Source: Octopus vulgaris (Eukaryota). From it: a stretch of DNA of 64,000 bases. Both the position numbers and the translations under genes were made by a program. This document shows positions 5,050 through 52,793 of the stretch, piece after piece (positions within the stretch are counted from its first letter, which is position 1; the number at the start of each line of letters is the position of its first letter). The notes beneath the pieces are model-generated. The model ran no database searches. It was not told the DNA's origin and saw only the letters and a list, made by a program, of their open reading frames with translations. The stretch covers positions 110,236,001-110,300,000 of the forward strand of contig OX597816.1 in NCBI GenBank assembly GCA_951406725.2, read 5' to 3'.

Positions 5050-5103
5050 GATCGTTAGCTCCTACATGCATTCTTTCTCTCCTTGTTTCTCTCCTTGTTT
5101 TTC

Positions 5104-5156
<53 letters not shown>

Positions 5157-5366
5157 CAGATCGTTAGCTCCTACATGCATTCTTTCTCTCCTTGTTTCTC
5201 TCCTTGTTTCTCTCCTTGTTTTTTCTGTGTATCTTTCTGTCGAAGAGCGTAGGCTCGAAACGTAAATTACTTGTTCTATTTCTATTCCTGAGCGCCATAC
5301 TAATACATTTGTGTGCTTGTACTCCACCTGCCTTCGGTTTTTGTTTATTTTCGTAAACCTTCCCGT
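5050..5366 (+). mobile_element. (TA)n-embedded ~200 bp HHR-bearing element, family A (full copy 5159-5366, partial tandem copy 5050-5104)
   Basis: Homologous to 6708-6867 (-) and 13370-13517 (+); bounded by TA/GATA microsatellites. Confidence 0.85.
5233..5268 (+). ncRNA. Minimal type I hammerhead-like motif, A6U variant
   Basis: cttt CTGTCGA a GAGC-gtag-GCTC GAAA CGT A aa: 4-bp stem II, palindromic stem III ACGT, GUA triplet; stem I weakened. Confidence 0.6.
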
Positions 5367-5393
<27 letters not shown>

Positions 5394-5397
<4 letters not shown>

Positions 5398-5692
5398 GAA
5401 ATGAAGAAATGCTGACAAATAATTTAAGTAATTTAAGTAATTTAATTAGGTGAGTTCTTTTTACGGTTGCGCATTTGTTATGCGTATCAAAGAAATTTTT
5501 AAGAAGATAGAGTTCCTTCGATAGATTTTTTCCTCTATCTGTTATAAGAGGAAAAAATCTATCAGAAGAACTCTATCTTCTTAAAAATTCTTTTGATACG
5601 CATAACAAATGCGCAACCGGTAAAAGAACTTTCACCTAATTAAATTACAAAATTACTTAAATTATTTTGTCAGCATTTTCTTCATTTCCTTT
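5394..5692. repeat. ~300 bp near-perfect palindrome between two (TA)n tracts
   Basis: Arms ~5394-5536 and ~5547-5692 are reverse complements differing mostly by small indels. Confidence 0.95.
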
Positions 5693-5704
5693 TTTATATA
5701 TATC

Positions 5705-5762
<58 letters not shown>

Positions 5763-6513
5763 TCATGGTGATAATAAGGATACATTTCCCCTGAGGCCAT
5801 AAGAATAACAGGCTCTTCAATCCCCATAAGCTACACCTACTGGGGGAACATCGCATCTAATATTGCATATGCTCACAGTATGCATGCGCACGGATGTGTG
5901 TGAGCAAGCTTCCAAATGCCGAGTGCATGCTCTTGTACATGCGAAACCGTACGTATGCATGTTTGTACACTTGCACACTCGTGCACACTCGTGTGTGCGC
6001 GCTCGTGTGCTTGTACTTGCGTGTTAATGTTATATAGATGGGTTAAAAGTGTGCACGGGTGCATGTGTGTATATCTGTGTATATATGTTTGCACGTGTGT
6101 ATGCGTATACATGTTCGGGCTCGCATGAGTATGTGTGCCTTCGCGCATATATGTGTACATATACAACCACACATATACCACCACATATATACGCGTATAC
6201 ATACACACCCCTACATCAATCGCCTCTTCCTACATCCCCCAACTATACGAGCGATTTCCTGTTCACCACGCAGTCGATTTCCCGTTCATGCGGTATTTTC
6301 CATCTGTCGGCAGTCAGTAAAATAATATAATATCGACATTAATACCCCGTGACCTTTCTCAATCAATCGCAGGTTAACGTCCAGTAATAAACATTGACTC
6401 TCTTCAATCGATCTTTCATTCAGACTCCGAAGACTAGCCATGAACTAGTGCTCTTATTTCGTTTGTATGTGTATATATATATGTATGTATGTATTTATAT
6501 ATATATATATATA

Positions 6514-6552
<39 letters not shown>

Positions 6553-6572
6553 GTATGTATGTATGTAGTATG

Positions 6573-6631
<59 letters not shown>

Positions 6632-6636
6632 GTATG

Positions 6637-6701
<65 letters not shown>

Positions 6702-6707
6702 CATATA

Positions 6708-6867
6708 CAGGGAGAGACGAAGACAGGTGGTATACAAAACAAACAGATGTATTAGTATACCGCTCAGGAATAGAAAACAGTCTTTTACGTTTCGAACCTA
6801 CGCTCTTCTACTGAAAGGGACACAGAAAAAACAAGGAGAGAAAAAATGTATGTAGTGGCTAACGATC
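6708..6867 (-). mobile_element. Family A element; HHR-like motif at 6782-6817
   Basis: Minus strand reads cttt CAGTAGA a GAGC gtag GTTC GAAA CGT A aaag; abuts a long (TA)n tract. Confidence 0.85.
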
Positions 6868-8566
6868 CATCAAGGATAAGACCTTTATTTTAAGCAACGA
6901 TCATATCAAGTGGCCATCATGGGAACAAAAACCTCATAGGTAATAATTCTTATTAAAATTATAATTCAGAGTATCTAAGATACCACCATTCTAGAGATGG
7001 TAGTGAAAACCTGATTCCCAAACCACATCAAGTATTCATACAAATTACTGAATAATCCCAGGCCTAAGTTTTCTGGCACTATATGAAAAATATACGACAA
7101 ATTCGATTGTCCATCTAAGCACCGCACGTTATATGGTCAAAATACTACTGCAGTGAATATAATGACGAAGTAAATATATATAAATTATTATATAAATAAG
7201 GATTATGTATCTCACTTTGGAGGCAAATTATATATTTTTTATACAGAGTCAGAAACCCTGGGTCTCGGATAATCCAGTATTTTACTAGTTTATTTGTCTA
7301 TTTGTCTTTTCACCTTGTGCTGTATGAATACTTTACGTAATTTTGGAGTCAGGCTGTGACTGTCATATGTAGCATACCCCCAATTATAATTTTAAATGGA
7401 TGTAAGTTTGTGTACATATAATTTTTGAAGGTCTAAATCTCTGACAGATCAGAATACGAATGTTCTGTTTCTCAGGATCTCCCGAAGATATATAAAGACA
7501 GATTAATCCCGACTTTAGATCGAGCTACGAATTAAATCGGCACTTTCATTGCGATAATAGACGCTATTTCATTGGCAACAAATACGAAATTCTAATACGT
7601 GAAAGATTTTAGTTGGTGAACAATAGATATAAAAGTGCTCCTAGTGTAGCTACATATCCATAGATATAGATATAACCAACCCATCCGTACATACATATAT
7701 AATATAACAAATAAATAATATTTTAAAATCATCTTAACAACTTGAGTAATACATACGTAAGCTAAGAAATATTACTTGAAATATTCATAATTGCCTCCCA
7801 TTAACTTGTTATTATCCTTCTCTTTTCTACTATATTTATATAGAGTTCAATTTGCGTTGATATAAGCGACTTAATACTTATTACCCCTTGCTACACATAC
7901 TCGTTATTTTCCTCTTTCCGCTCCATCTATTAACGGTTCTTATTTAAAATGACAATCCTTCCGTTTTTCAAATTGATTGACTAATAGTCACCTCGTAACT
8001 GGTCAGAAACTTCCTACTTCAGAATTGAGGTTGTATAGCATGTTTTCACCTAGACTACGAAGTAAGCATATATGAAATAATTGATATTTTAATAACCTTG
8101 AGTTATGCTATGTAGCTATGTCGGGCAGTAAATGATACCAATTTTTATGTTTATGTTTTGTAGAATTGTATGGTAAATCTTGACTGCTCCTATTATTACG
8201 TGCACAAAATAGTAATATTTTGCTACCCAGTTTAATTAATTTCTGTTATCGATTTTGAAATGCTCCTCATTTAATTTCATTTTCTAATCGATTAACGTAT
8301 AGTTAACCGATATCATATTAAGTTCTGTAACTCCCGGTATTTTTACTTTTTACTTTATGATCAAACCAAATTGCTCCAAGAGCATTATATATTCAACTTA
8401 CGCCGGCAGTAGCCTCACCGCACCCCGTAGATAGGCATGTACCACTAATTATCATAACTATTCTAATTGTATAAGTAAATTTGTCAGTCGGTCGAAAGGT
8501 TCTCTGAGGGATAGGATATAACATCAATTGTTATAACCTTATTTTCTCTTTCTTTTTCTTTATTTT

Positions 8567-8692
8567 TCTGCTCTGATGAAATTCTACAATTTAAGCTGGT
8601 ATAATTAGTACCAGTGATAATTATTATTATTGTAATAATTAAGCCTGATTATACCCAAGATAAGCGCGAACAGAAACAGCTGTTAGATCAGA
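8567..8692 (+). ncRNA. Type I hammerhead motif with long stem II insert
   Basis: CTGATGA 8573-8579, GAAA 8673-8676, palindromic stem III ACAGCTGT, GUU triplet, imperfect stem I tctgct / agatcaga; outer arms aacatcaattgttat / ataataattgatgtt. Confidence 0.7.
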
Positions 8693-9099
8693 TATTGTAT
8701 TTTCTTAATAAATAATAATTGATGTTTATCAGTTATCAGTTTTATCTCCATTTTTTCATTTTTCCATGAATATAAACTTCGGTTTATTCCTTTCCTTACT
8801 TAACATTTATGAGCATTAATACTAATACTCATGATCCCATAGAGGTTATACACCAGTAATCCACTGGATATAGATATCCATTAAATGATTTTTAAAACCT
8901 CTAATTCAACTCACTTGCATATATATTTTTTATGGAGATAATGATACTAAAAATAATGGAACACCCATCCCACGCGACGAGTTGTATGTGGTAGTCGTTA
9001 GAAATAATGTAACGTAGGAATTCGAGAGGTCGGTGAAGACGGTCATAGGTAGTCGTGTCTGTAGTTGTCTAACTAACTATACTGATATACAGGAGTGGA

Positions 9100-10076: not shown

Positions 10077-10078
<2 letters not shown>
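9100..10078 (+). mobile_element. Decayed Gypsy/Ty3 LTR-retrotransposon gag-pol fragments
   Basis: RT: GGKFFSKLDISEAYLQSEL..LLAINTHHGLFKF*RLLFGVKVALSIYQQVMDTIL..CLDD (~9430-9665); protease-like VKMQLDSRRDITIVNEET (~9873); KYLVQIIDKNG (~10015); knuckle-like CSSCNK. Confidence 0.85.
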
Positions 10079-10122
<44 letters not shown>

Positions 10123-10128
<6 letters not shown>

Positions 10129-10370
10129 AGTGCAAACAAGGGAGTCAGAGAAAGGCAGAATGCTACTTATATCTGAACACTACTATAGAAATATTCTTTT
10201 AAAAAAACTTTTCTTCTAATTTTTCTAAATTTAATTATTTAATCGTTACAGTTGAAAAGGTCTCAAAATGACTGAAACCGGTACTGAAAGATTCACTATA
10301 AAATTATCTTAGCATTTTCTATTTTTGATATATATATCAACTCGTGTGTTCCTTTCCACCCTTATACATA
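10123..10370 (+). mobile_element. (TA)n-flanked ~250 bp element with central HHR and imperfect self-complementary ends
   Basis: TA runs on both sides; agaatgcta / tagcattttct and aaggg..gaaagg / cctttccaccctt pair around the HHR. Confidence 0.65.
10246..10289 (+). ncRNA. Minimal type I hammerhead with U3:A8 core
   Basis: ttacag TTGAAAA ggtc-tcaaaat-gact GAAA CCGGT A ctgaaa: stem I cag/ctg, palindromic stem III ACCGGT, GUA triplet. Confidence 0.7.
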
Positions 10371-11513: not shown

Positions 11514-11546
<33 letters not shown>

Positions 11547-13354: not shown

Positions 13355-13369
13355 CTATATATATATATG

Positions 13370-13517
13370 GTTAGCCACTACACACATTTACCTTCTGTAG
13401 AAGAGCGTAGGCTCCAAACGTAAAATCCTTTTTCTATTCCTGAGCGTTATATTAATAAATCTGTTTGTTTTGTACACCACCTGTCTTCGTCTTTTGTTTT
13501 TTTCGTAAAGTCTCCCG
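13370..13517 (+). mobile_element. Family A element; HHR-like motif at 13391-13425 (G12 mutated)
   Basis: cctt CTGTAGA a GAGC gtag GCTC cAAA CGT A aaa; (TA)n on both sides. Confidence 0.85.
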
Positions 13518-15679: not shown

Positions 15680-15964
15680 AATGTAAAGTATAATAGCCAT
15701 CTCAATATGGCTAACCACAAGGGGTGGGTGTTACTTCGAGCCCCAGGAGATCATCGTCTCCAGCTGGCTTTAGGCACACTACCTGTGCCCTTATGGTATT
15801 TGCAAAGGCTTACGAGAAAGGGATGACCTCCTTTGCAAATACCATAAGGGCACAGATAGTGTGCCTAAAACCAGCTGGAGACGATGATCTCCTGGGGCTA
15901 AAAGCTTCAGTAACACCCACCCTTTGTGGTTAGCCATATTGAGATGTCTATTATACTCTACATT
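15680..15964. repeat. ~285 bp hairpin (MITE-like fold-back)
   Basis: Arms 15680-15808 and 15830-15964 are near-perfect reverse complements with a ~21-nt spacer. Confidence 0.95.
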
Positions 15965-16399: not shown

Positions 16400-16830
16400 A
16401 TTTGGAATAAAAAATGCAAATTCTCCCTTTTAAACATTCAATTTTGGAGAGAATCCCTTGATGAAGGGCGTGTGTGTGTGTGTGTTTGTGTATGCGTGTA
16501 CCTGTGTACATGTGTGTGTGTCTGTGTGTGTGTGTGTTTGTGTGTGTGTTTGGGAACATGCCCATCTTTATACCGTGTATTTTGGATGTTTTGCATTGAA
16601 AAAGAAAACATGTTTTGCATTAGAGAACGTAAGTATAGCACTTACAAACTACAAAACCTAGCAAAGCTCAGAACGACTCAAGGCCACACAAATACACCTG
16701 AATATTTATATAGATTAGCAGTTATTCCGATATTTGAGTCATATTTTGAATACAAAATGTACTGTCTCCGGTTTTCTTTCAAACATTCAATTTTGGAGAG
16801 AATTTTTTTCAAACATTGAATTTTTGAGAG
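16400..16830 (-). repeat. Inverted copy of the PLE 3' terminal (pLTR-like) region
   Basis: 16748-16807 is the reverse complement of 21071-21129; 16430-16465 of ~20836-20872; 16550-16740 of ~20610-20825. Confidence 0.85.
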
Positions 16831-17430
16831 AATTTGTTAATAAAATGTAATTTAATTCCATTGCTTTTCGGGATTGCGGGTCGTCCTGTCCACATTTTTA
16901 AAGGAGGAAAATTTTTAATTTACCGTCTATGCATTTTGAATTTTCCGTCTCAGATTCTTACTTAATGGAATCTTGCATAATTCTTCTTGTCGCGTATGTT
17001 GCCTGGATTCTTGCACGGTGGCAGATGGAATTATTTGTTTCGCCAATGTAATTTTCTTTGCAGTTTGGGTAGGTAATGCAGTATATGATGTTTTGCGTCT
17101 TGCAGTTCATATCTGCATTTATTTGAATCAGAATCAAACTTACAGCTCAGAAACACGAAAAATACAAAACTTCTCACAGATATATCTAATAAGTTCAATT
17201 TACTTATTTCAAGATTTGACGCCAATGCAGATAAAACTGTGAATGATACCCATACACAAGGTGCTCTAACAACATAGACGAACAAAAAGAAAATAGCAAG
17301 AATTGATATACAACAACAAAATCTTTTGAAGCCACATCTCTGGAAGAAACTTCTTAATCAACGGAATCATGCATATTAGAAAAGCATTCGATGCAAAAAT
17401 ATAGCCAACACCTACATAATTGGCAAAGCA

Positions 17431-20400
17431 ATGAAAGCCCAATCCTGCCCAGAAATTTTATTATTACAGAAATACATGAATCACTGTAAGAGACAGCAAT
17501 ACGTGCGACTAGAAACAGAAATCGCTCTTCTGCAATCACAGAAAATACAAGAAGAGGAATTAAAAATAATTGACGCAGTTACATTTGCTGAAATCGCTGA
17601 GTGGAGAGATAATCAATTTCATGAAAAACTGCAACAACTATTGAATGAAGACACAGAGCGAGAAGAAGAAAAATTTATTAAAATGTGGCAAAAACAAAGC
17701 GAATGGTTCCCTAGTTATGAAAAAATCTATGGAGAAAAATGCATTATGAAAACGAAACGACAACACGAGGAAATTGAAAACAAACATAGACACCAAATCC
17801 AGAGGAACCGGAATAAGGTATCGAACCTCTAATAATCCAAGAACGTATGCGCAAATGACCTCCATTTCACCCCAAGTACAGACTAGAAACCCATATTCAA
17901 CAATAAATAACACTGCAAATATCCAACACGCAAAATATAGAAGACAACCATCAAGCCATAATTTCAAACACCATAGATGGATAAATACAAAGGAAAAAAG
18001 ACATGAAAGACAAATAACGTACAGACAACCACCAACCCGTAATAACATGTACCCTAGATGCACCAATACTTGGGAAAGAAGAAAGACGAATAAAATACGG
18101 ACAGTATAGGTACTATAATATGAATAATAATTATCATGTTAACTCAAGAAACTCACGATTTACAACCAAATATCCCATATATCCTGAATGGCGAAAAAGT
18201 GTGGATGCTGCGAAGAAAACAAAACTTATAATCAAGGGAATCCGCATTAAAGATATGAACCATCCTCCTGCCTACATAGGAACCAGAACGCGGAAATCAG
18301 AAAATGGACACACGGTAACACAATTCCTTTTTTTGTTTAGGGTGAAAATACAAGACCGCTAAAACACAATATTTAAACAAACACAGAGAGCATATAGACC
18401 TGAAAATCATAAAGTTGTCAAACAGAAACCACAACAAGTCTGTAATGTACCTCCTATTGAAAAGTTTCAAGTTTACCTCGACACCCACCCCTAATCTCAT
18501 TGAACTGAAATCTGATATTGAACACATCAACCGCCACCTCGACTTATAGAATTCTTCAGCAGTAAGGATTTAAATGACAGATCAATAGTCAGAAATAAAT
18601 CCCACTTCACCTTCTACAACAGGAGGGACAAATATTTAGACGCGTATATAGACACTATTTTGAAATTGTCCCTAAATACCCACAGATGCAAACAAAACCT
18701 TCGTAAAGATGAAAAGGAAGCATCACAAACACTGAAGAATGACAACGATGCCGATAAAGGAGGGGCGATCGTAATCATGAACAAGGATTATTGTAAGGAT
18801 AAACTATTTGAAATGTTAACAAGCCAAACTTACTACAAGGAAGAACCAAGGCACTCAGAAAAAGCAATAATGAATAAAGTCAGGAGATTAATGAATGAAT
18901 TCTAAGATTCCTTCACAGAGAAGGAGAAAGATCATATATGCAAATTTCTAATCAAAGAGAGCAATTTCTACGGATTACCCAAAGTCCACAAAAGCTCCGA
19001 ACTACAAAGATCCATAAATAAGCAGAGGAACCAGTACGTAAAAATACTAAGGCCTGTTGACCTCAAACTAAGACCAATAGTTGCTGGATTTCAAGCTCCA
19101 ACACAACTAAGAAATTTTTTTTTCGATATACTCCTGAATCCTTTGCGCCTTTTAATACCCAGTCATGTACGGGATGGCAAAGATTTAATACAACACATCC
19201 CTCCCACTGTCATCAACCTCTATGCTAATATACTTCACACTTTAGGCCTAGAAGCAATCAAATATTGGGGAGAGAAACATAGAGGACGGAAAAAGAATGC
19301 TTCAGGACTGACTTCATCACCAAGGCAACACTCCCAGTACTAGAAGAAAATACCTTTAGATTCGACAATAAAACATATCGACAAATAAAAGGGCACGGCT
19401 ATGGATTCGTGGTTTGCACCTTCATGCAAATTTAGTTATGGGATACTTGGAAGGAAAACTTTATGAGGAAGTAGGAAAAAACTTTTGATCAGGAGTACAA
19501 GTGATATATCACTAAAAATTGGAAACGCTTCCTTGATGGTTGTTTCATCATCTGGGACAGATTGAATGAAGATCTAAGTATATTTAACAATATACCGAAT
19601 ATACTTCACCTATCCATTAAATTCACGACAGAATCCAGTTGCAATGAATTACCATTCCTAGATATCCACATAAAAATACAGTCACAAAAGACATTTTGCA
19701 AAAATATGACACACTTGTATTTAAATTTCTACTTTTGCCATCCATCACACATCAACAGCAAGAGAAACATCCAATATAGCATGGAAGACGCATCTGTTTT
19801 ATATTGAGTGAACCCAAAATACGTGAAATCCGAATCAATGAAATCAAAGGGGTTCCTCACAGTGCAGAAATACCCCTTAGGATTAATTAATGAGGGAATT
19901 AAAAAGTCGATGAAACTGAATATCACTCAAGTACGGATACCTAAGGAAAAAGTTAATGAAAATACGATTTCCTTCCTTAACACACATAGTCCTGGAATAA
20001 CCAACATCTTTCGCGCCATAAACCTACAAAGCCCCAAAATGAAAATTCTGATAAAAAAAAAATCTGATTGAAAAAAAACACCTTACAAAATAGTAGACGC
20101 CAATCAAAAAATGTTTAAGAAAACACCTTACAAGGGCAGAATTCAAATCAGAGAATGAATCAGAATTCTTAGTAAAACAATTTGGAGAATGGAGATGTGG
20201 AAAATGCAACAACAACAACAAACAACTTCAAATACTTATAATGTGGTTCCCACACAAATTTCAAGAGCGGATCCGTTTTCAATGCAGATATGAACTGGAA
20301 GACGCAAAACATCATATACTGCATTACCTGCCGAAACTGCAAAGAAAATTACATTGGCGAAACAAATAATTCCCTTTGCTAACGTGCAAGAATCCACATG

Positions 20401-20580
20401 CAACATATCCCACAAGAGGAATTCCGCAAGATTCCATTAAGTGAGGATCTGGAAATATGCAGAGACCGAAAATTCAAAATTTTTCCTCTTTTACAAAAGT
20501 GCACTGGACGATCTGCAATCTCGAAAAGCAATGGAATTACATTTCATCAAAACATTCTCTCCAAAATTGAATGTTTGAAT
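17431..20580 (+). pseudogene. PLE polyprotein pseudogene (N-terminal region, RT, GIY-YIG endonuclease)
   Basis: Motifs ADKGGAIVIMNK, FYGLPKVHK, LRPIVAG, VINLYANI, FRFDNKTYRQIK-G-TAM, WKRFLDGCFIIW (19520), SIKFT..LPFLDI, CGKC, NIIYCITCRNCKENYIGET (20308-20364); many stops and frameshifts. Confidence 0.92.
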
Positions 20581-21317
20581 GAACAGAAGAGACAGTATAT
20601 TTAGTGTTCTAAATTTGAATATCGGGAAAAAAATGCTCATCTCTGTAAACATTCAGGTGTTTACGTGTGGCATTAAGATGTTCTGAGATTTGCGGTTTTT
20701 TATAGTTTCTATATGTTATAGTAATGTTTACTAATGCAAAAACATGAAATTGAAAGAGGCGTGACTTTGTTTGTCAATGCAAACCATTGAAGATATACAG
20801 TATAAACATGGACATGTTCCTCCCACACTGACACATTTCATCAAGGGATTCTCCCCAAAATTGAATGTTTGAAGATAAAGTGGAGAATTGGCATTTTTAT
20901 TCCAAATGTGGCTCATCTCTACAAATGTTCAGGTAAATATATGTTTAGCATTGGGATGTTCTAGCTTTGCATATATAAACATATATGTATATATTTAATT
21001 TCATTTATTTTTTAAATTATTAATTTTTAGATATCATACTGATGTTTTTCATGCAGATCTATTTCATCCAAAAATTCCCTCCAAAATTGAATATTTGAAA
21101 GAAAAGTGGATACAGTACATTTTGTATTCTAAAATGAAGTCAAAGAGAATAATAAGAAAGAAAGAGGGGGGAGGAAGAGAGGAGAAAAGAGAAAAAGAGG
21201 GGAAGGGAGAAAGAAAGCAAAAATACTGTCAGTGATGACCATGACCCATTCCAATACAATGGTAAATGACTAATTAAATAAATTAATGGTGAATGGAAAG
21301 AGGAATCCTCTTTCTCC

Positions 21318-21350
<33 letters not shown>

Positions 21351-21835
21351 TCTATCTCTCTATCTATCTATCTATCTTTCTATCTTCGTGAATATCTACC
21401 TATGTCTGTTTGTATGTATGTATGTATGTATGTATGTATCTATCTATCTATTTGCCTATCTGTCAGCCTATCAACATTCCTATATTTCTACGTATCTTTT
21501 TCCATCGTCATGGAACCTGAACCAAAAACAAAACAAAAATTTTTTAAAAATAGTTTCTCCTCTTCGAAACGAAAACCCTCCAAAACATCTGCTTTATATA
21601 AATGAACAAGCTGTTTGTACATTCACCAAATTTTATTTGACAAGTTCGAGAAACGAACGAAAGCACTAATAAAAATGAAGAAATAAAAAAATTTTTTTCG
21701 AAAATTTTGACGACTTTTTCTCAAATATATATATATATATATACAGTATACAATAATATGTTACATATATTCCTCTATTTACATAATATTGAGGATGTAA
21801 CATATTATTGTATAGATAAATGTCCTATATATACA

Positions 21836-27360: not shown

Positions 27361-27739
27361 CTATATTTTTCGAGCTAGGACGAACGACTGCCATGTCTAG
27401 CAGATAGATCTCTACTACTGACGAAGGGAAATACACTGGAACCAGACAATTATACTTGTCCTGCTACTGCTAGATGGTAGGGTTTCTCTCCTCTGCTCGC
27501 AATTTGTTAGACACAGGTTGTATCGTTAACCAAGTGGAGGAGATGACCTCCTGGGATAAAAAAAATAATTGGTAGTTACGCGATTTCGTACGGAAGAGCC
27601 ATGTCGAAGTGGCAAGAAATATTACGTTTATATATGTTATATTATATTATATTATATTATGAGCAAGAATCAAAAACCAAGGCAGAACGAGTATCTCAAG
27701 TAATTTAGGATACTTAAATTAGTGTAAGGTGTATTTGAA

Positions 27740-27816
27740 GTGCTGCAGCTCTTTCTGGGATAACCCCAGTGGTTGATTAGCATGTTCACACACTGGATAT
27801 TCCATCATCAGAGACA
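27740..27816 (-). ncRNA. Decayed hammerhead motif (long stem II class)
   Basis: Minus: CTGATGA tggaatatccagtg...cactggggttatccca GAAA gagctgc a; stem III is 2 changes from ACAGCTGT and stem I is poor. Confidence 0.5.
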
Positions 27817-27911
27817 AAGTATAAATATTTTAGGCAGTTTATAAGGAATAATATAGAAGAATAAAGGAATAACTCTAATACGATCAATAAAACCAGCACA
27901 ACAACCCTCCC

Positions 27912-30028: not shown

Positions 30029-30504
30029 TCTTTCCGAACGCGGAAATACTGAGTAAATTACCCTTACAAAGTAGAAAAATTGGTCAGCAAGCAGCTATGG
30101 GACTCGAATCCCTATCCCTCAAACACTGTGCTTTACCATTAAGCTAAACTGCCCACTGAGAAATTCACCGCTGAATTAAGACGTTAAATACTTTAGTTTT
30201 ATGGAATACCTATGTGTGTATAAATGTAAACAAATAAATGCATGTTCTGTTATTGTACTTTTATTGGAAGCGTCGGAAATGGATATTCAACGATACAAAA
30301 AACGATATTTTTCCGAACACAGAGTTGCCGTTAGAACAGCAGAAATATTTGGTAAATTACCCTTACAAGGCGGAAAAATTTGTCAACAATCAGCGATGGG
30401 ACTCCAACCCATATCTCTCAGACACTCCGGCTCAGTGCAAGTAAGGGTAATTTAGCCAGTATTTCTGGTGTTGTAACGGCAACACTGCGTTCGTAAAAAA
30501 TATC
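30029..30504. mobile_element. MITE-like element with tRNA-like modules
   Basis: Inverted repeats 30304-30366 / 30441-30504; upstream related unit 30029-30155 with minus-strand box A-like tagcttaatgg and box B-like gattcgagtcc. Confidence 0.7.
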
Positions 30505-30587: not shown

Positions 30588-30620
<33 letters not shown>

Positions 30621-30621
30621 T

Positions 30622-31572
30622 TGTTGAAAAATATCGTTATAGGTATAAATATACCATAAACAAGTATAAAAATGTTGAATGAAAATTAGATTTAATACAA
30701 AATTGGATTCAATACATACGCACGTTTCAAAAGATAATATGGACAAGTATGACAAATTATAATAAGAGTAATTATAATTAAATTTATGCATTGTTATTCT
30801 CATCAGCGTGAGGAAGTTTTGGAAGGACATCAAACATCAAATAGGGTTATAGGGAAAAATCGGATATTTACAAACAAGTTGTGCAAATGAAGAAACTAAA
30901 AGTAATAATAACAGTGAGAGAGACAAATGAGAAAAAAGACAGACATATCAAATCTATATGTGCAGTGAACTATAACAAAACGAAAAAAAAATCTAACGGA
31001 TGTATTTAGAGAAATAGTAACAGGTCGAGACGAAGTAAAACGTAGACAAGGCCACGGGTGCATAGAAGAATATCACGCAGCAGGTACACTAGCAGACAAA
31101 AGCCCTAGAGAGTTATACGTAAATATATTAATATTGAAAAATGAAAACATATATATTGTAAGAGACGAAAGGTGATAGGGAAGACTATGTTTGAAAAAGG
31201 TACAATATTTAAGTAAAAATGTACATACAAGCACAAAAAAATCAAAGAGAACTTAACAAAGAATAAGCAGTGATCATAGACAGGACCGATCGGTGTATTC
31301 AAGAGAGTTATTTTACTCAATAACTATCCTGGGGTAGGGGAGACAATCAGAAAAAATAGGAACGAATATACGAAGGAGAATATTATAAATTTCAAGTGAT
31401 AGAAAGAACATATAGTACTTAAGACATAAGGCTATACGGTCGTACATATATGCATACATATACTCATACACAACACACATACAAACGTGCGTACACTCAC
31501 ACATACACATACAAAAGTGCAAGTGTAAGGGAAGATACAAGTAAAATAAAGGAAAACGTATTCACATAAGAC

Positions 31573-31611
<39 letters not shown>

Positions 31612-31660
31612 AATATATATGTATATATGTATATATACATGTATATGCATATATATGTAA

Positions 31661-31697
<37 letters not shown>

Positions 31698-31699
31698 CA

Positions 31700-31748
<49 letters not shown>

Positions 31749-31915
31749 TTATATATTATGCCATTTTTCTGACATATTTGTATTGTCTTTTGAAACGTGC
31801 GTATGTATTGAATCCAGTTTTGTATTAAATCTAATTTTCATTCAACATTTTTTCTCCTCCATATTTTTATACTTGTTTATGGTATATTTATACCCATAGC
31901 GATATTTTTTCCAAC
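30622..31915. mobile_element. Element with ~120 bp inverted terminal repeats, TA-associated
   Basis: 30622-30740 is the reverse complement of ~31780-31915, apart from one ~14-nt indel. Confidence 0.8.
30711..30810 (-). ncRNA. Candidate type I hammerhead with long stem II
   Basis: Minus: cacg CTGATGA gaataa...ttatctttt GAAA CGTGCGT A tgt; near-palindromic stem III, GUA triplet, only 3-bp stem I. Confidence 0.5.
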
Positions 31916-32056
31916 TATTTTCCAACTATTTTCATATTCTTATTATTTGCTCTGGCTGTGATTTTTATGAATATGATGAATCTTTATTAGGAATCACTTT
32001 TTGTCTCTTTTGGGATCTCTCAAAAAGTTTGAATTGTTCTTTTTGAATTTATATTT

Positions 32057-32121
<65 letters not shown>

Positions 32122-32237
32122 GAGGGCATTATTATACATAGATGCCACAGGCTAAGAGGGACAAAAAGTCATTTCTACCAAATATTTTACTAATCCCACC
32201 GAATGCAATCTTTCAAAGCAAGACATTTAAAAAATAT

Positions 32238-32286
32238 AGACTTGTATCACCTGTGATTTCGTACTTATGTACTCTTCAGCAAGCCT
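32238..32286 (-). ncRNA. Canonical type I hammerhead ribozyme (copy 1)
   Basis: Minus: aggcttg CTGAAGA gtac-ataa-gtac GAAA tcac-ag-gtgaT A caagtct; 7-bp stem I, 4-bp stem II, 5-bp stem III, AUA triplet. Confidence 0.92.
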
Positions 32287-32694
32287 GGACGTATCATACA
32301 TAAACGACCCTGTCTCGTCGAAGCCAAGCAGCTAACTGTTCAACTTCAACGAAGCACATGGAGAGTTTACATATATTACATTCGGTAAATGGCAGGCTTC
32401 TTCGAATTGCATTTCGGGTAGGAAAAGTTTTTTTCGGAATAAAATTATTTAGCAATTAAGGACAACTTCTTAATAAGGAATCTTAATAAGAAATTATCAG
32501 GTAGATAGCGTGAAAAACCTCATAAGAAAAAAATTTCGAAAATAATTCTTTCTTATTGAACATATTAATTTATATAGAGAGGGCATTATTATACATAGAT
32601 GCCACAGGCTAAGAGGGACAAAAAGTCATTTCTACCAAAAATTTTACTAATCCCACCGAATGCAATCTTTCAAAGCAAGACATTAAAAAAATAT

Positions 32695-32743
32695 AGACTT
32701 GTATCACCTGTGATTTCGTACTTATGTACTCTTCAGCAAGCCT
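32695..32743 (-). ncRNA. Canonical type I hammerhead ribozyme (copy 2)
   Basis: Identical to copy 1, 457 nt away. Confidence 0.92.
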
Positions 32744-35389
32744 GGACGTATCATACATAAACGACCCTGTCTCGTCGATATATGTATATATATATAAAGA
32801 AAAGAAGCATTGGCAGCAAAAATCTCGTACAAGTAAAAAGCATTGAACTTTTACTTGAAAGCATTTAAGACGTTTATACTTCCATGAAGTATAAACTCAA
32901 TAGACAAAGGAAAATCTGTTTTTAGCTAGTTTAAGAATAAGTAACAAAAAAGCTTCATTCTCTTATAAAGCGGTTGCAATATTCTCAAAAGAACTGGGCT
33001 TCAAACAAAGAATACAAACACCATATGAACAAAAATAATCAAACAGAAAGCAAAATGAAGATAACATGTTTTTGAAACTACGAGTGGTTAAAAATGTTCC
33101 TTCCAAAATCCATATAACTATCTTCTATGAATACATGCATGCAAAAGTTTTGTGAGTATATAATTTAGTACTGAAGGCGAATATGTTCAATTTACTTAAG
33201 TGTATTGAAATTCATAACAAAATATAATTGAAATAAAGAAAAATACGCATATTACGAAATATATTGGTATTCTAAAAGAATATTTAAAAAGATATTGAAC
33301 CGAAATATTTAAAAACAAATTCCTTTCTATAATTTCTGTAATAATAAACACAAATTAAAACTTGTTCAAGGATATAATCATGAAGGAACACAGAAGAGTT
33401 AGGAGTTTAGGAATTTAATAATTCCTCTCTGAATATGTTTCTAGACTCTTTCTTTTTCGACAATCATTCACCTTGCTTGTAATTATTATCTATGCGTAGA
33501 TTCAAGTTGTGTTAATTTCTTTTTGAATCTAGTTAAAGAAATTTGGTGATACGGCACTTTGCAAGACACAATAAGAGATTAATATACGATGTTATTTGTA
33601 GTTTAACAAAATTAATAGATCATCGAGGAAAATGCTTTGAGGTATTTGATTAGGCTATTTATATTAGAGATCAAATCCCCCTACTGTCGGCTTGCCATTT
33701 CTGCTTTCCATAATCGATGAAATAAACGGTCAAATCTTGAGTTCGATACTATTGACGATCTCCTTCCCTAAGTTTCAGACTTCATTCTTAATTTAGAAAG
33801 CAATATGATAATCAGAATCAATGATACAGAACCTGTATATTTCATACGTAGATAAACGTATAGTATCCGTAAGATTATAGCAAATAATCAAACTTACATG
33901 GCCTCCACAGAAAAAGACATGGAAATTAACTCTAAGCATTCGTGTTAAGAATTAAATATGCAAAATGGTATGTTATTTATGGCAGTATTAAATATAAAGA
34001 AATATTCCCAAAATAGACATCAATATACAAAATAACATTCATCTCAGGTGAATGTAAAGAACATGGCTAGAGAAGAAACATGTTCATTGTTTGTGAATTA
34101 TAAACAAAACATATCTTGATTTATTAAGCAACACCAGAACAATCCAATCAATAAGACTTGTAGAGGAGTGGACAACATAGCCATTGGCACAAAAGCTACC
34201 ACAGTAGTGCATTTCATTCTATATCTGTGCAATTAGCAATTCGTTGATGACTGATATCAATGGCAATAACATAAGCTCGCAAGCAAAAACAAAAAGCTTT
34301 CTTAAATGAAGCAATAAGAACTAAATTTTAATATTGTACTGTGATAAATTTAGCAGAGCAATATGCTGTGTAATGCCTAATAGTCCAATAAGTATAGAAT
34401 AAAGATATGTTCAGCTCAGTTTAAATGATATGCATACATGCATACATATTAACACAATTCATGTTACGCAACCTGAAATTCATATTGCGCTATCTGAAGA
34501 TTCCTCGGCTACTGCAAAAATTAAACACCCGGAGATTTATATAAACACAAACATTCGTATAGAACGCATGTGGATGGCCAATATAAGCATGCTGTTAGAG
34601 ATATATGAGTATCGTTTGTTTCTGTTATTTACCTAAACGTAATAGTACAAATATGTACCAGTAATATATTGTTTCTCAGTCCGTTTACTATAGACTCTAT
34701 GCTACACACTGAGCAACTCATCACACACAAATATACAGAAACACACACACAATAACCAAACAGTATCGCCTGCACGTATACACTTACACAAAAGTAAAGA
34801 CAACTGGGAAAAGAATTATTTATTACGTCAGTTTACGAAGCCAGAAAATAGGCATCTCTCACTTATTTCACAGTTGCATGCTTGGTGTTAGATAAAGCAA
34901 CTGGGTGGAAAATACGTTCCCCAATAACACATCTAAATATGTTAAGGCTTGAATTTACAGACTTGTTCAATGGTGCATGAAAAGACGCAATAAATGTGAA
35001 AATGAATGAAAATGCAAAAGAGAAATATGCGTAGAAAGGATAAATAATATTTTCACAGGAAACAGGAAAATCATCATGAACTTCATCATTATCATCGGCG
35101 TCATAGTTGCGATTTTCATTGTTATCATCCTCATCATTTTTATTGGATTTTCTCTATAATTCCCTCTGTTGACTGAGGATAACAACAGCATCTCTCCCCG
35201 GTTATCGGTAACACGTCAAATCAACCATCATGAATATAAAAAATCTATATCTCATTGACATCTAAACTTTACCAAAACCAAAAAAAAAATAAAGGAATAC
35301 AATATAAATAAGACCATTAACTTTGCTAGTGCTGATGCAGCCACTAACTTACGCATTACTATTAGCTCTACTACTAATAATGTTGATAT

Positions 35390-43709: not shown

Positions 43710-44214
43710 TGATAAGAGTAAATAATTTTTATAAAGGCTTTTAAAAAAACCCCAATTATTTACTGGTAGAATTCGGTATGTAAATATAGCCGATTACCGG
43801 CAGGAACTTCTGTAAAGTTCAGTATATATATTGTATATAAGAAAAAGGGACAGGCAAAACAGGTTGCTTGACCGCATACCGAAATAGCAGTCAAGAATGC
43901 TTATTTCTATCAAAGTTGGACTCCGGGCATGACAGACCCTGTAATTCACATATGCAAAACAGAAGGAATAGATAACGAATACGAAGTCTGGCGGTTATCT
44001 GTGAACATCATGTTTCTGGATTATAAACATATTGAATATATATTCCATATATTTTTGATATATATTTCATATATATTGCATATATATTTCACATCCTTCT
44101 TCAGCACAGCTTTCCATTGAAAAAGATTTATCATAGATTTATCAAATGCTACGTACCTCAAACCTTCTGACCATGCGACATCAAAATATTTGAAGAAAGT
44201 GAGCAAAGGCTAAA

Positions 44215-44962: not shown

Positions 44963-45353
44963 TTTATATATAAAAGTGAAGTTGTGTGTCTGTCTCCTAC
45001 GATTTAGATTCCTAACTACTCCCACATTTTGCGGTGCAGTGTAACCAAAAGCGGGTATCTTATAGTCGTGATTCATATCGAGCCCTTCTGGGTATTAGCG
45101 CGCGTCTACGATGAGTCTACAATTTAAAAACAAATTACCATCATTTTCCTCCATTTTAATGCATTTTTTTGCTATTATATAAGGGAAGTAACTCTCTAAA
45201 AATGTATTATTAAATCTCAGAACGTAAAAAGCTACAGTAACACCCCCCTTTGTGGTTAGCGATATTGAGATGGCTATTATACTTTACATCTCTAAAAATG
45301 TTTATATAGTTATTTCCCTTACAAACCCGAGCAACGCCGGGCGATACTACTAG
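44963..45353 (+). mobile_element. Non-autonomous Helitron
   Basis: 3' GC-rich hairpin cccgagcaacgccggg (45326-45341) then CTAG (45350-45353) followed by T; 5' end tatatataaaagtgaagttg approximate. Confidence 0.8.
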
Positions 45354-46000: not shown

Positions 46001-46061
<61 letters not shown>

Positions 46062-46128: not shown

Positions 46129-46131
46129 GAA

Positions 46132-46456: not shown

Positions 46457-46469
46457 AATTACTATTATT

Positions 46470-47745
46470 GAGTGAGAGAGAAGCGCACACCATCTAAATA
46501 ACACTGGGTTATCAATATACGAAGCCTTGTATACGCATCATGGCTACCTGCCTGATAAGCGTACACCTAGCACATGCATCACAACCATATATCCACGACA
46601 TCGTGTTCTCATATGAAGACAAACAGTTTCCAACATTGCAGGTGGGGCTTCGAATTTTCTTCAGGTCGAGTGCCCCTCCCCGCTCAAAAGGTCATTGAAT
46701 AAAGGTTGTTTAAAGTTGATGAACACCAATGTTTACAAGGGTGAATTATTCGAAGCCGAAAGAATTCCTCTCAACACATGGCTATGATGTCCCCCCACTA
46801 CTTCTGCTCGTGATCAGAGATGTACATACCATCAGCCACTAAGGAATATGCTCAACTGGTTAATATTAAGCCGCTGATAAGGAAAACCCTGGTATTGAGC
46901 AAAATATTTGCTGTAGTCCATCTTTTATAGTATGATAAAACAATGATAACACATCCAATCAGCTAAGACCAGAAGACATGAGAGCCATTGCCTGGTACTG
47001 CATCAGGGCATTTATTATTATTATCAAGTGAGAGAGCAGCGCGTGCTATCAAAGTATCACTGGGGTACCAAAATACGAAGCTCAATATACCCCTCATGAC
47101 TACCCGTATGAGAAGGCTACACCATGTACATGAATCACAACCATATGTGCGCGACATGGTAATTTCATATCAATATAAACTGCTCATGACAGTGCAGATG
47201 GAGCCCAGTTAGACTTTTCTTCGCTCGAGTAACTCATTCCGCTCAAATGGTCCCAGATGATGAACGAAACGCCCATGTTTCCAGAGGTGAATAATCCACG
47301 CCCCCAAAATTTCTCTCAACACATAGCTATGATGCTCCCACACTACTTGTGCTCGTGATCAGAGATGCACATATCGTCAGTCAATGAGTAACATGCTCAA
47401 CCTGTAATGGTTTGTCTTTGGTTCAAATGATGGTGGGCTACAGCAAAATTCTGCTCTGTACAACAGATTTGCTTGTCATTTATTTGATCCTAACCTGTTG
47501 AGCATGTCCCTTAGTGGCTAATAATATATGCATCTCTGATCAGGAGCAGAAGTAGTGGGTGGGCATCATAGCCATATGTTGGGAAGAATGCTTGTGGGTC
47601 TGAGTAATCACTCTGTAGCGCTCACATAATCGTGATGCATATGCCTGGCGTACACGTATCGGGCAGGTAGTCATGATGGATAATGTGGGCATTGCATATA
47701 TGTATCCCCGTTTCAGTATGATGGCGTGCGCTACTCTCTCTCAGT
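46470..47745. repeat. Three copies of a ~540 bp interspersed repeat (46470-47010, 47026-47400, inverted 47431-47745)
   Basis: Shared gtgagagag..aacacatggctatgatg..gctcgtgatcagagatg; short (TTA)n junctions; another fragment at ~54100-54215. Confidence 0.85.
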
Positions 47746-47929
47746 AATAATGATAATAACAATTCTACCGCCGAAGAAATCAACCTCCACTCCGCTTCAA
47801 TATTCTAAGTTTCCTGAGGATTCCTTTGCAACTGGATGTGATAGTGTCACGATGGCTTCAAATTTAATCCTGTAATGCACAATGGCCTTATATGCTCCGA
47901 GGAGCCTTTTTCTTGTTGTTAGTCGTAAG

Positions 47930-48910
47930 TGACAGTTGATAGGCCAGCATGGTAAGTCAGTACAGAATCAAATATGCTCGAGTTAGAAACAATATATATC
48001 TGTAACCTCTGTCCTATAGTATTCCTATATCGATACCCCTGTATTGGAAGAATGTGTTCATAAAAGTGAACCCACTTCCAGCACAGGAGTCTAGTAGTTC
48101 TTCACTATTAACATTGATTTAGTGGTTGCATTTCCTTCTATCACTTTTTCTCATTTCCATTGGCAGGTGAATTCAGGACTCCTTATGGGAGAAATATCTC
48201 TTAACGTCGTCTCAATTAGAAGTGACTTTCTCAAAGAAGGATATATATTCAGCTTTGCAGTGTAGTGCATATACCTGTGACAGGCACAGCGGTCCTTCCT
48301 TCACTCCAACCTTCAGGAAGCAAAATTTTCCTCATAGTGAGATCCATTTCATAATACAATTCAACTGGGATATTTAAACTTCCCCTGCTTCAGCATGTGC
48401 ATGGCGTTATGCCTGAATGGCAGAAGCACTATCCTCCTCCTACCTCAACGGTTTTAGGACCGCAAACCGTTGCTGAAGAGATACCAAATATATCTTAGCC
48501 AATAGCGTTTGCCCCCCTCCGCTAATTCATGCTCTTTGCCCACAACGTTTGTGATATTCTATTTTCCAAGCATTAGCGGTTATTTCCTCCTGGATTAGAT
48601 TCGAGGCCATGGAAGCCCTCTCCACCCCTCCCAGAACCAGCCGCAAACTTATTGCTGCCTGTTCATGCATTTAGTGGAGAATGTTATATATTTTTCGAGC
48701 AACTACTGCTACCTAAGATCCGAACACCTCTCTTGTTAACCCCCATGACGGACGATGCGATATGGTTTAACCAGTTAGTTAAAGACACCTTGCAAGCAAA
48801 GAAATACGCTTACAAAGCTTGGCTTGAAAATATATCTCTGTTTCTGAACATGCATTGCACTAAACCAGGAAAAGTCGTAGCAGGAACAATGGAGAAGCTC
48901 AAGATTCAAG
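47930..48910 (-). mobile_element. Decayed RTE-like LINE fragments (APE on minus, downstream linker on plus)
   Basis: Minus: LGK*NITNVVGKEHELAE..DIFGISS and NVNSEELLDSCAGSGFTFMNTFFQYR; plus: WFNQLVKDTLQAKKYAYKAWL. Confidence 0.7.
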
Positions 48911-50259
48911 CTTGAAAGGTTTTGAGATTTTAAAGCGGCCATTAAAGTGTTCTAATAGACCATTCTTCTTCTTCATAACAAACAACCCTCTTCCAGGCCT
49001 GCTATTAAAAACTCGGCCAGGGTTCTTCTCTCTAAAGAAAAGAGCATCCTTGAGAAGCGAAAACATTCTTATTTGGATGGAAGTTGTTGTTTGATAGCGC
49101 ACTTGTGAACGTTTTCGTGTTTCACGTGATGTACATTACGCAACCAAATAAATACAAATGATGCTTTTTCGATGTTTCTTGTAACAGACGGAGGAACATT
49201 TCATAAACAGCTTGAAGCTAATAAATTTAATCTATGTTTTGTAGTCAACCATTTTGCTTAGCGACACATAATATGAAATATGAATAATACGTAATATTTC
49301 ATAGGCAGACAAAAATTACCCTTTAGCTTGCAGTTAATTCAAAGTAACTACAAATACTCTTATTGCAGCAGAATGCTAATGTGCTAAATATAAAATTGAC
49401 ACTTCAGAAGCAGAATGAGGTAATTAAAAGCGGTTAATTCTCATACAGTTCAATGACTTCATTTTGGGAATTGATAGCACTTCATGCGTGTGAACAATTT
49501 ATTCACTTTACAGGTTCTGGCATACACATGTTTGTTCTATCAAAAACCATGGCGTAATTATGGTTCAGACAACGTCTATGAAGACAATTACGTAAGCGAA
49601 ACATATTAATAAATATAAGTGCGCATTGGTTTAATATGCTCTAGGTTATTAAATACATTTATAATATATAAATTAGAAATATATACAAAAAAAACGTTGA
49701 GTAGTGACGAAACGGATAAAAATTTAAATAAGTCAGAATGAATGCAGAGATTTATAACTAAATATTTGACCTTCACGATCTGGAGATGTTTTTGTGGTTT
49801 GCATAGCTACCAAGAGTGGCTATCTGAGCGGCAGAGCGTATATCTGAAATGGCCAATATGAACGGCCCGAAACAGTTCGCTGTGGAACATCACTCACTAT
49901 TTGTGTATCCTTGAAGGTGCCTCCATTGTTAAACGCTACCTTACTTCTATCTTTTAAAATGTTATGCACTCACTCTTAACATTTTCAACTCTCCCGAAAT
50001 GAAGCAGCTTGTGACATCTTATACCATGGTAGAAGTATGAGAGGCTATTCTAAACATATCACACCTACACATGTGTTGTTGCGCAGCTATTATAACACAC
50101 AATCGTATTACAGTAAGACCTGTGTCAGCCGCTTTCTACCTGGTCCAAATGTATGCTGGGTATCAGTCAGCATTTTTTTCTCTTTAAGAAACGCAATTCC
50201 TTGTGACTGATTCTTCCAAACTTTGTTGATGTATGATGCGACAGCTTTGAAAAATTTTA

Positions 50260-50420
50260 GTCGAATTTAGCCCCAGTACTTACTAATTTTTGTAAAGCCT
50301 CGCATTTGTTCCATACGCTGCTTTTGTTGAACTGTTATGCTACGGGGACGTAAACAAAAGAACACCGATTGTCAAACGGCGGTGGAGGACAAACTCATAT
50401 ACAAAGACACAAACTCGCAC
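50260..50420 (-). mobile_element. SINE fragment (family of 11299-11720)
   Basis: tacggggacgtaaaca..accgattgtcaaacggcggtggaggacaaac. Confidence 0.7.
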
Positions 50421-50509
50421 ATCACACACACATATATAAATATACATACACATACACAGTCACATACGCATATACATACATACATACATACATATACATA
50501 CACACATAC

Positions 50510-50545
<36 letters not shown>

Positions 50546-51039
50546 GTTTGTGTGGGGGTATCTGTCTCTTACGGTGCACGTTTGTATGAAAACGAAAATC
50601 TTGCTATATTACGTAATATCGGGCAATGTTCCATTATTCCCGTTATTTCACTATTATTATTCTTCATCGTTGTGTTCACGTGTCTCTCATACTTGCCTTA
50701 TTTTCCGATCATTTACTTTTACGTCTCAATATCAGAACTATCCTCTCTTGTATGAACAGTCTGCATTCTTTAATATTTCAAAGTTAGCATGTACTGTTAT
50801 ATTAACCATTTTCCCTTATTTCATATTTGTCAAATGCATCCTAATAAGCTAAGTAAGGCCACCAAAAATGTCGACATATATTTACAACATTACATTCATG
50901 GTTACCCATAAAATATTTTTCCTTTTACCAAGCATATTTATGTTTATGCTTTGGAGCGTATCATTTGAAATCCGAGCTTCCAAGTGGATGTTAGAGTATC
51001 AATCTTTCCTAAATCAACTCCCAGTTACTAAATCAAGAA

Positions 51040-51071
<32 letters not shown>

Positions 51072-51488
51072 GCGGGGAATTTTAGCCATATTCCCGAAAC
51101 ACAAGATACGTTCAATAGGCATTATTAGTTATCATTCTATAATGCAATTGGTGAGCGTACCAAAAATTATATTCATATTTGCTTCTGAAAAGCTCATAAG
51201 CATGTCAATGCAGCTTGATTTTCGCTTCAAATATAAGATGTGAGTTATGTATTTACTTTGCTCGTGCGATCATCAACTGATCACTATCATATAATTACCC
51301 AGCCATTGCTTTCTTAAGCAAGTCGTCGCTAAAATAGTTTCCCAATAACGTTTAAAGCTTTCAGCACGCAAGTTTGAGGTGGCAAGCCTACATGCGCACA
51401 TACAGAAATATAAGACAAGGAATAAATAATGGTCACTCTATACTTCTTTATTGTAGTAAATTTAACTAACATTTGTTATAAGCAGAAG

Positions 51489-51613
51489 TGATTCTGATGA
51501 AAGTAGCGTTTCTTCTCTAGGTCGATCAATGTTTCTCAAGCGATTAATGAACTTATTAAGTAATCCTGTCAATAACGAACCAGTTAATTACTACTGGAAA
51601 CAGTTGTAAATCA
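51489..51613 (+). ncRNA. Type I hammerhead with long stem II insert
   Basis: tgatt CTGATGA aagtag...ctactg GAAA CAGTTGT A aatca: 5-bp stem I, agtag/ctact stem II, near-palindromic stem III, GUA triplet. Confidence 0.8.
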
Positions 51614-52793
51614 AAGTTCCTACAATAATGAAATGAGGAACGACCATTATTTCTGCCTTGTCTTTTATATCGCTCCGTATAAAAACCAGCGTCACTAGAA
51701 GACCGCCATGGATTTTCAATATAGAATAGGATGAACTATAACCTCAGATACTGCCACATAAATATGCAGAGTTCTTTACTAATCTATACAATATTTTAAA
51801 CCTGGTGTACTAACAGAGAGCCTATAAATTATTTTGCACGGAGTCACAATCCCTTAGAAGTATCTCTGTTCTAATATTTCACACAATTACTGTAAGCCTA
51901 AACAGAATATAAAAGTACTTACATATATGCATGCATGCATACATACATACATACATACACACATACATACATACATACATACATACATACATACATACAT
52001 ACATACATACATTCATACATACATATATACATATATACATACATTACATGTAATCATAAAAGCACCAATACGCACATTTGGCTAGATTGCTATTATAACC
52101 TGACATCCATTCACTTATTAATATATTCTGAAAAAGTAAATTTACAATACTTACTTATTAACATATTGAACGACGAATTTAGTAGAATCATGAAGTGAAG
52201 GCGGAAGTGAACTGTTTACTTTACGCACAGGGAGCTACGATGGTGCATGAGTTTTAGAATTAAGAATATGATAGACATAATTTGCATCTCAGCAATGTAT
52301 GATTTTATGATAGGCTAGCTACAGTTTTCGATAATGGGGGACATGAAATCTATGATAAAAAAGATATATTATATACACTTGACATAAAGAGAATTAGTAA
52401 GATGTAATAATTGTTGATGTTCTACTTGTGAACAGCAATATTTCAAGTCTATTTTGCATCACGTCTATATTTTATCATATGAACATTATGCATAAAAGAC
52501 ACATGCTCCCATCAATTCAATCTAAACCTCCTCATTAGAGAGATATATGTTCACTACAGATATACGTGACATTACATAATATGCACAAAGTTATGAATTC
52601 ACATGTCCATAAATTTACGATCCTCTGGTAAAAAATGGGATTAAAAAGATGCAAGCAGATATCAATAATGTCAGTTTTAAACGAATATTTTTAACTATAT
52701 CTAACAAAACTAGTAAATGTAATTAGAATACACATTCATGGTAATTCCTCGTGTATGTTCATATGTATATATGTATATATGTATGTGTATATA

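Follow-up and report, generated by a model that had tools for sequence, protein, structure and literature searches.

Hammerhead motifs in a 64-kb stretch of the Octopus vulgaris genome are very probably the 3' ends of several Penelope-like element families

Background

A 64,000-nucleotide stretch of the Octopus vulgaris genome (contig OX597816.1, positions 110,236,001 to 110,300,000; hereafter the window) contains about a dozen motifs resembling the hammerhead ribozyme, close to a Penelope-like element (PLE) with a reverse transcriptase (RT) and a GIY-YIG endonuclease (EN). A sequence-only reading of the window had proposed that they sit in unrelated mini-elements, many of them within (TA)n, which form a diverse non-autonomous set that uses PLE enzymes and may contribute to the microsatellite load. 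The locus thus raises the question of whether such motifs belong to independent ribozyme parasites or to the PLEs themselves. As detailed below, the hammerheads are very probably the 3' ends, or pseudo-long terminal repeats (pLTRs), of several PLE families, four of them coding, with one further family, B, being non-coding and probably dependent on a PLE enzyme for copying in trans.

Results and discussion

The motifs and their families

Self-comparison of the window together with genome searches resolved the 12 motifs into 8 repeat families and 10 insertions (Table 1); the 15-30 best-scoring loci were looked at per family. All 12 sites proposed earlier are borne out, each being the majority form of a dispersed family. 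The majority sequence of each of the 8 families adopts a type I hammerhead or hammerhead-like fold whose stem III is palindromic or nearly so, again as proposed, and which lies upstream of a fixed 3' end at a distance of 60-130 nt. Most copies in every family are short and non-coding, and several window copies carry private damage (Table 1). The notion of unrelated mini-elements survives in part: there are indeed 8 families, but the motifs at 5233, 6782 and 13391 belong to a single one, families C and E have a common 3' end, and the D and G insertions (~7623-8905 and ~30609-31754) are not mini.

We quantified the excess of motifs with a strict descriptor, devised after the motifs had been seen, which combines the core CUGANGA or its U3-A8 form, GAAA, a palindromic stem III, and stems I and II. 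Scanning the window gave 8 matches, whereas 200 block dinucleotide shuffles averaged 0.74 +/- 0.78 with a maximum of 3; the excess became weaker when one core mismatch was tolerated (9 vs 2.8 +/- 2.0; 25 shuffles, maximum 8). Five of the 8 strict matches correspond to sites already listed (10252, 30806, 32279, 32736 and 51494), those at 21637 and 44104 are additional, and the one at 21724 is probably due to chance. A sample of sixty 10-kb stretches taken at round coordinates (600 kb) yielded 34 strict matches, 5 of them from one satellite, as against 6.0 +/- 2.2 in 10 shuffles. The sample excess amounts to ~38-47 strict motifs per Mb, which extrapolates to ~100,000 across this 2.80-Gb, 33% GC and (TA)n-rich genome. 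Motif density in the window is about twice the sample average; since the excess holds in the genome-wide sample too, the window is not exceptional as a locus. Chance matches in AT-rich DNA account for some of the background, as the shuffles, the satellite and the match at 21724 illustrate, but as an explanation of the motifs at large they have a negligible probability in view of both excesses and of the fact that every listed site is the majority form of its family, at a constant distance from the 3' end. Of the 207 matches in an Rfam scan, the 150 that were listed include no hammerhead, and microsatellite microRNA models dominate them. Minimum-free-energy folds of single motifs recovered stem II in most cases but missed the full three-way junction, and are therefore not counted as support.

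Table 1. Features of the window relevant to the hammerhead families (parentage of families A, D, E and G as predicted from coding sequence upstream of other copies)
Family	Positions	Strand	Feature	Listed motifs	Hammerhead and private changes
A	5154..5367	+	Predicted 5'-truncated 3' end of Neptune-like RT+GIY-YIG PLE delta	5233	C3 at 5237; A6U
A	5046-5104		59-nt duplicate of the 5' part of the 5154..5367 copy		
A	6708..6871	-	Copy of second subfamily (N7=A)	6782	Private U4A
A	13369..13517	+	Copy of N7=A subfamily	13391	Private G12C
C	5367..5726		Inverted pair; direct arm 5548-5690	5588 and mirror	Core U3 at 5593, mirror core near 5480-5490; U3-A8 + A13C; stem III ACCGGT; private A9C (5588)
D	7623..8905	+	Predicted truncated 3' untranslated region (UTR), hammerhead and tail of Hydra-type PLE	8567	Core 8573, GAAA 8673, long stem II, ACAGCTGT; private mismatch at 10.1
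E	10123..10369	+	Predicted 5'-truncated 3' end with 32-nt tail of young Neptune-like PLE gamma	10246	Hammerhead 10252; U3-A8
	16400..21723	+	Decayed Neptune-like PLE; frameshifted RT and GIY-YIG ~18390-20580, inverted 3' piece ~16400-17130		
F	27660..27900	-	3' end	27740	Stem III and U16.1 lost from window copy
G	30609..31754	-	Predicted truncated 3' UTR and hammerhead of Hydra-type PLE	30711	Core 30806, long stem II, ACGYGCGT
G	31764..32067	+	Inverted, tailed 3' piece of the same insertion		
B	32121..32778	-	457-nt non-coding unit, partial tandem, (TA)n on both sides	32238, 32695	Canonical; C3 at 32736 and 32279
J	51405..51856	+	Inverted 3' piece (51405-51477), hammerhead, tail	51489	Core 51494, 96-nt stem II region, ACAGCTGT in family

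Families that run into PLE coding sequence

The link to PLEs that had been proposed is upheld by families A, D, E and G, whose sequence continues upstream, in the same orientation, into the coding part of PLEs; they are hence very probably 5'-truncated copies of coding PLEs. 1) Among 30 family A loci selected for long 5' parts, 5 have a colinear RT/EN region upstream (tblastn E 8e-29 to 3e-9), and in 10-kb stretches the RT motifs, a CX4CxxC linker and a GIY-YIG domain are continuous with the same 3' end; we term this PLE delta. 2) In family E, whose copies are 99% identical, RT, EN, 3' UTR, hammerhead and tail occur in that order in 4 of 20 loci and in two 10-kb stretches, defining the PLE gamma. 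3) Upstream, family D can be followed for at least 1.6 kb, and 2 of 25 loci arrive at an EN that carries a CxCX5C linker. 4) Family G reaches a Hydra-type EN in 2 of 20 loci (E 3e-15 and 1.7e-12). For D and G the coding link thus concerns the endonuclease end only. Judging from these upstream regions, at least half of the motifs (6 of 12, in 4 of 8 families) sit on truncated ends of coding PLEs. The claim of a diverse non-autonomous set is thus not supported, B being the only family shown to be non-coding, and the result comes close to the outcome named beforehand as fatal to that claim, namely that every family is a simple solo pLTR of a catalogued PLE.

Translations of gamma and delta, as well as of two further PLEs termed alpha and beta, display the CX4CxxC linker, a CCHH motif and a C-terminal EN, all features of the Neptune clade, and we accordingly class the four as Neptune-like by motifs rather than by a tree. 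Pfam found RVT_1 and GIY-YIG domains in alpha and beta and none in the delta pieces. The predicted parents of D and G are Hydra-type, likewise from endonuclease motifs and not from a tree: the CxCX5C linker, a signature of the Hydra clade (PMC8557442), the absence of CCHH, and CxxC and CxH around E and N are seen in loci L163, L331, L244, L252 and L375-L390. One of these (L331:6480-8100, minus strand) represents a young Hydra-type PLE family with many near-identical EN matches and a canonical long-stem-II hammerhead, ACATATGT. PLE fragments that stand beside copies of D (L326), G (L328, L331), J (L336) and C (L286) have the wrong orientation or are unjoined by family sequence, and were excluded from the counts.

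Alpha and beta (L256:1774-5684 and L262:1097-3963) are young families in which a 775-aa RT+GIY-YIG frame recurs in many near-identical copies, with a second, overlapping frame upstream of it. Their pLTRs match none of the listed families, and they were rejected as parents of these; their intact open reading frames (ORFs) nevertheless indicate that PLE enzymes are available in this genome. The PLE neighbouring the motifs, recognised by tblastn similarity to intact genome copies, is no better a candidate. It is decayed, ~80% identical to its nearest kin and without Pfam matches in four window fragments, and it terminates in (TA)n at 21724. Its own hammerhead (21637-21723, plus strand; U3-A8, stem III AGC(G/A)CT), missed by the sequence-only reading, is present in 6 of 14 fetched relatives, some of whose loci end short of the site. 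As this 3' end is different and unrelated in sequence to the listed families, the element is not their parent and its closeness to the motifs means nothing.

A number of results weigh against attributing all these ends to PLEs. No intact ORF was seen in any of the five coding family A loci, for gamma, or for the parents of D and G. There is no coding sequence upstream of C in 20 loci, and all 20 of its best copies are short, with no common upstream extension except inverted arms. J likewise has none in 25 loci and is weak on (TA)n (6/22, its tails being under-detected). No parent was found for F, its one weak match (E 4e-4) being unjoined by family sequence, and no partner PLE for B emerged from similarity to the pLTRs compared. 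For C, the 3' end is homologous to that of E (local score 66 vs 26 +/- 4.5; 300 shuffles, maximum 45); given that it is short in all best copies and has its 3' end and tail in common with E, C may have arisen from an E-like PLE as a non-autonomous derivative. In their architecture, F and J are similar to D and G. The possibility that J is a miniature inverted-repeat transposable element with terminal inverted repeats was discarded, as its inverted arm proved to be an optional copy of the 3' end.

Insertion targets and the (TA)n load

To assess targets we counted (TA)>=3 within 8 nt of tailless 3' ends, which occurs at 6.7% of random positions; one to three loci per family in which the anchor was not located were dropped. 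The earlier proposal of (TA)n targeting is supported, with counts of 27/30 and 27/29 for A (54/59 in all), 13/13 for E, 9/9 for C, 4/5 for G, 7/13 for D, 5/11 for F, 1/2 for B and 6/22 for J; the window copies of D and J do not end in (TA)n, and that of F ends in (TTATA)n. Among the sample motifs 16 of 34 have (TA)4 within 200 nt, as against a 22% background. A (TA)n bias is known in the Neptune, Naiad and Hydra clades (PMC8557442). In all, copies within a family have a fixed 3' end and begin at variable points on the 5' side, some with a tail or an inverted arm, although none of 59 family A copies bears a tail. Both end points match short TA-rich words inside the elements, an arrangement suggestive of annealing to the nicked repeat as the means of priming. 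Three of the five longest family A copies (L370-L372) start near the same RT point (GTRMG motif) directly after (TA)n, possibly reflecting a truncation hot spot or a deleted subfamily.

These features would fit a mechanism in which the GIY-YIG endonuclease nicks (TA)n and reverse transcription begins inside the element, at one of two TA-rich points that lie 60-130 nt or 90-300 nt downstream of the cleavage site and give rise to tailless or tailed copies respectively. Early termination would leave 3' fragments of 150-1300 nt, and a second priming event could furnish the inverted arm. Two motifs with palindromic stem III in a tandem transcript would cleave as a dimer, a mode of action published for such motifs (PMC4209133, PMC6765202), whereas the longer stem III of B predicts monomer cleavage to a unit-length, possibly circular, RNA, which a PLE enzyme would mobilise in trans. 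Two internal RT start sites have been described before as the explanation of the tail, for a motif that cleaves only with protein (PMC11167929). The Poseidon element PAc in that work likewise has two RT starts downstream of the hammerhead, tailed and tailless copies, and AT-rich targets; its start site lacks homology to the target, in contrast to the end points found here, both of which are TA-rich and could anneal to (TA)n.

Under the alternative proposed earlier, most families would be ribozyme retroelements in their own right, non-autonomous parasites of PLE enzymes that enlarge the (TA)n load. Non-autonomy is true of B and possible for C, the copies of every family are mostly short and non-coding, and short A derivatives could have self-amplified, as no intact delta ORF was seen. 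However, A, D, E and G reach coding sequence with ragged 5' ends. TA runs at the young junctions of E and C are longer than the length-weighted background (medians 24 and 30 nt vs 15 nt), which speaks for the alternative, but this could be explained by target choice as well as by extension, a preference for long targets accounting for it equally well. The elements also represent a small share of TA runs (~44 recognisable elements vs 693 (TA)>=6 runs in 600 kb), and the window, with 703 such runs per Mb, lies below the sample (1155), so that the suggested contribution to the microsatellite load is not supported. We therefore regard this alternative as improbable and favour truncated PLE ends as the source of the copies.

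Family B, a non-coding retrozyme

Family B is the sole family shown to be non-coding, and a clear protein-free parasite. Its 33% GC unit forms head-to-tail and inverted arrays, the best copies being 96-98% identical; 41 of 45 motifs have a canonical core, and compensating changes are seen both in stem II, on its two sides (GUAC/GUAC to AUAC/GUAU), and in stem I (G-U to U-A). No PLE protein match was found in 30 loci. By its sequence organisation B is a retrozyme of the non-LTR (long terminal repeat) type under the published definition, and it is likely to be moved by PLE genes, a dependence proposed previously for metazoan retrozymes (PMC7229834; bioRxiv 10.64898/2026.07.22.740005). Like the metazoan non-LTR retrozymes of those reports, it is a low-GC, non-coding tandem with one canonical type I hammerhead per unit; its length of 457 nt falls at the top of the 150-450 bp range given there, and its arrays differ from the reported ones in having PLE-type inverted arms and a 117-124-nt tail. 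Families A, D, E and G lie outside this definition of a non-coding tandem unit, as all run into coding sequence. Circularity of the unit was not seen in D, F, G or J, and the tails of D and G never return into the body. Four contig sets, from runs not on record as RNA, cover the B unit, with ends and strand not readable there.

Core variants and ribozyme function

The canonical core (C3-U4-G5-A6-N7-G8-A9, G12-A13-A14-A15 and U16-H17, or its U3-A8 form, which is published for PLE hammerheads; PMC4209133) is present at the family level in B, D, E, F, G and J, and is intact in 10/25 copies of D, 17/20 of F, 16/20 of G and 12/25 of J. The two remaining families depart from it at positions held to be invariant: 1) in family A, U6 replaces A6 in 85 of 91 copies, the remaining core positions being retained in 82-90 of the 91; 2) family C has C13 in place of A13 in all 20 aligned rows, combined with U3-A8 in 18-19 of them. 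Comparable changes occur in the pLTR hammerheads of the young intact PLEs, alpha having U3-A8 + A13C in 8/8 copies and beta U4C in 6/6. A sister family of A (L069:4893, L099:2599 and others) retains A6, as in the canonical core, together with a similar GAGC/GCTC stem II, and U4C is seen in about half of the copies. The A and C folds are hence best described as hammerhead-like, putative ribozymes.

Conservation within a family reflects the master copy only. Comparison of the two A subfamilies shows differences at 1 of 37 positions within the motif (N7) and at 15 of 136 in the flanks, a contrast that hints at constraint on the motif and is not significant (p = 0.20). It is conceivable, if doubtful, that in several families the fold is no ribozyme at all but a protein-binding or RT-start landmark, or is decaying, with core changes tolerated and cleavage unneeded. 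The variants of A, C, alpha and beta point in this direction, as does an anole PLE in which ribozyme mutants are without effect on in vitro insertion (PMC11167929); further, A6C and U4C, known as low-activity natural variants, strongly lower activity (PMC3088659). On the other hand B, D, F, G and J retain a canonical core, U3-A8 is a covariation known to be active, the anole motif needs protein to cleave, so that weak cores may still work, and the non-significant subfamily contrast hints the other way. This alternative concerns function and is compatible with a PLE origin of the copies. Tentatively, then, PLEs may attain copy numbers in the tens of thousands and still be producing near-identical copies with variant cores, which would act as protein-assisted or dimer-only ribozymes or as docking landmarks. 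Family A, with 10 matches in 600 kb and missed by the strict scan, is estimated at ~47,000 copies with a wide error. The core variants make it testable whether a PLE needs hammerhead cleavage, and the canonical sister families in the same genome provide matched controls. A literature search found no report, among the entries listed, of A6U in a natural hammerhead.

Relation to known PLEs and to repeat annotation

PLE hammerheads, their truncated single copies, the (TA)n bias, non-autonomous PLEs and retrozymes as parasites of PLEs are all published, and what is found here amounts to the usual biology of PLEs in a genome rich in them. The minimal type I hammerheads of PLE pLTRs (PMC4209133) share with those described here a palindromic stem III, an extra base between 9 and 10.1, U3-A8, the presence of many families per genome, mostly as single copies attributed to truncated PLEs, and opposite-strand pairs 100-700 bp apart. 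The A6U, A13C and U4C changes are not described in the available text of that work, and the 70-100-nt stem II regions of D, G and J are unlike its minimal motifs; the density of ~40 per Mb found here comes from another descriptor and is not directly comparable with it. EN-containing Neptune and Hydra PLEs (PMC8557442) are similar to ours in having either CX4CxxC + CCHH or CxCX5C + CxxC and CxH, as well as (TA)n insertion, pLTRs, tails and inverted truncated copies. They differ in that the 3' UTRs of our Hydra-type elements are long (1.6-1.9 kb), clades here being assigned by motif only. The Octopus vulgaris annotation reports 6.83% Penelope-like sequence and 893 unclassified, recently active families of short interspersed elements (SINEs), and hammerheads go unmentioned in the portions of its text and supplement examined (PMC13282606). 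Many apparent ribozyme 'SINEs' would, on the present account, be truncated PLE ends, which is relevant to repeat annotation.

Other features of the window

The strict match at 44104 belongs to a canonical-core motif (43995-44110, minus strand) with an 81-nt AT-rich stem II region, for which no relative was found in the 600-kb sample or in the loci checked. Direct and inverted copies of an abundant repeat (46458-47760 and 54131-54213; 10 BLAST pieces, 6 of 60 sample stretches) contain CTGACGA and GAAAC words, clear type I stems being absent. A 285-bp near-perfect palindrome (15680-15964 and 45224-45308) has arms recurring elsewhere, and no hammerhead was seen in it. Finally, a short repeated element at 30036-30504 with a tRNA-like match (Rfam tRNA, 34 bits, 30089-30153, minus strand) is probably the head of a SINE.

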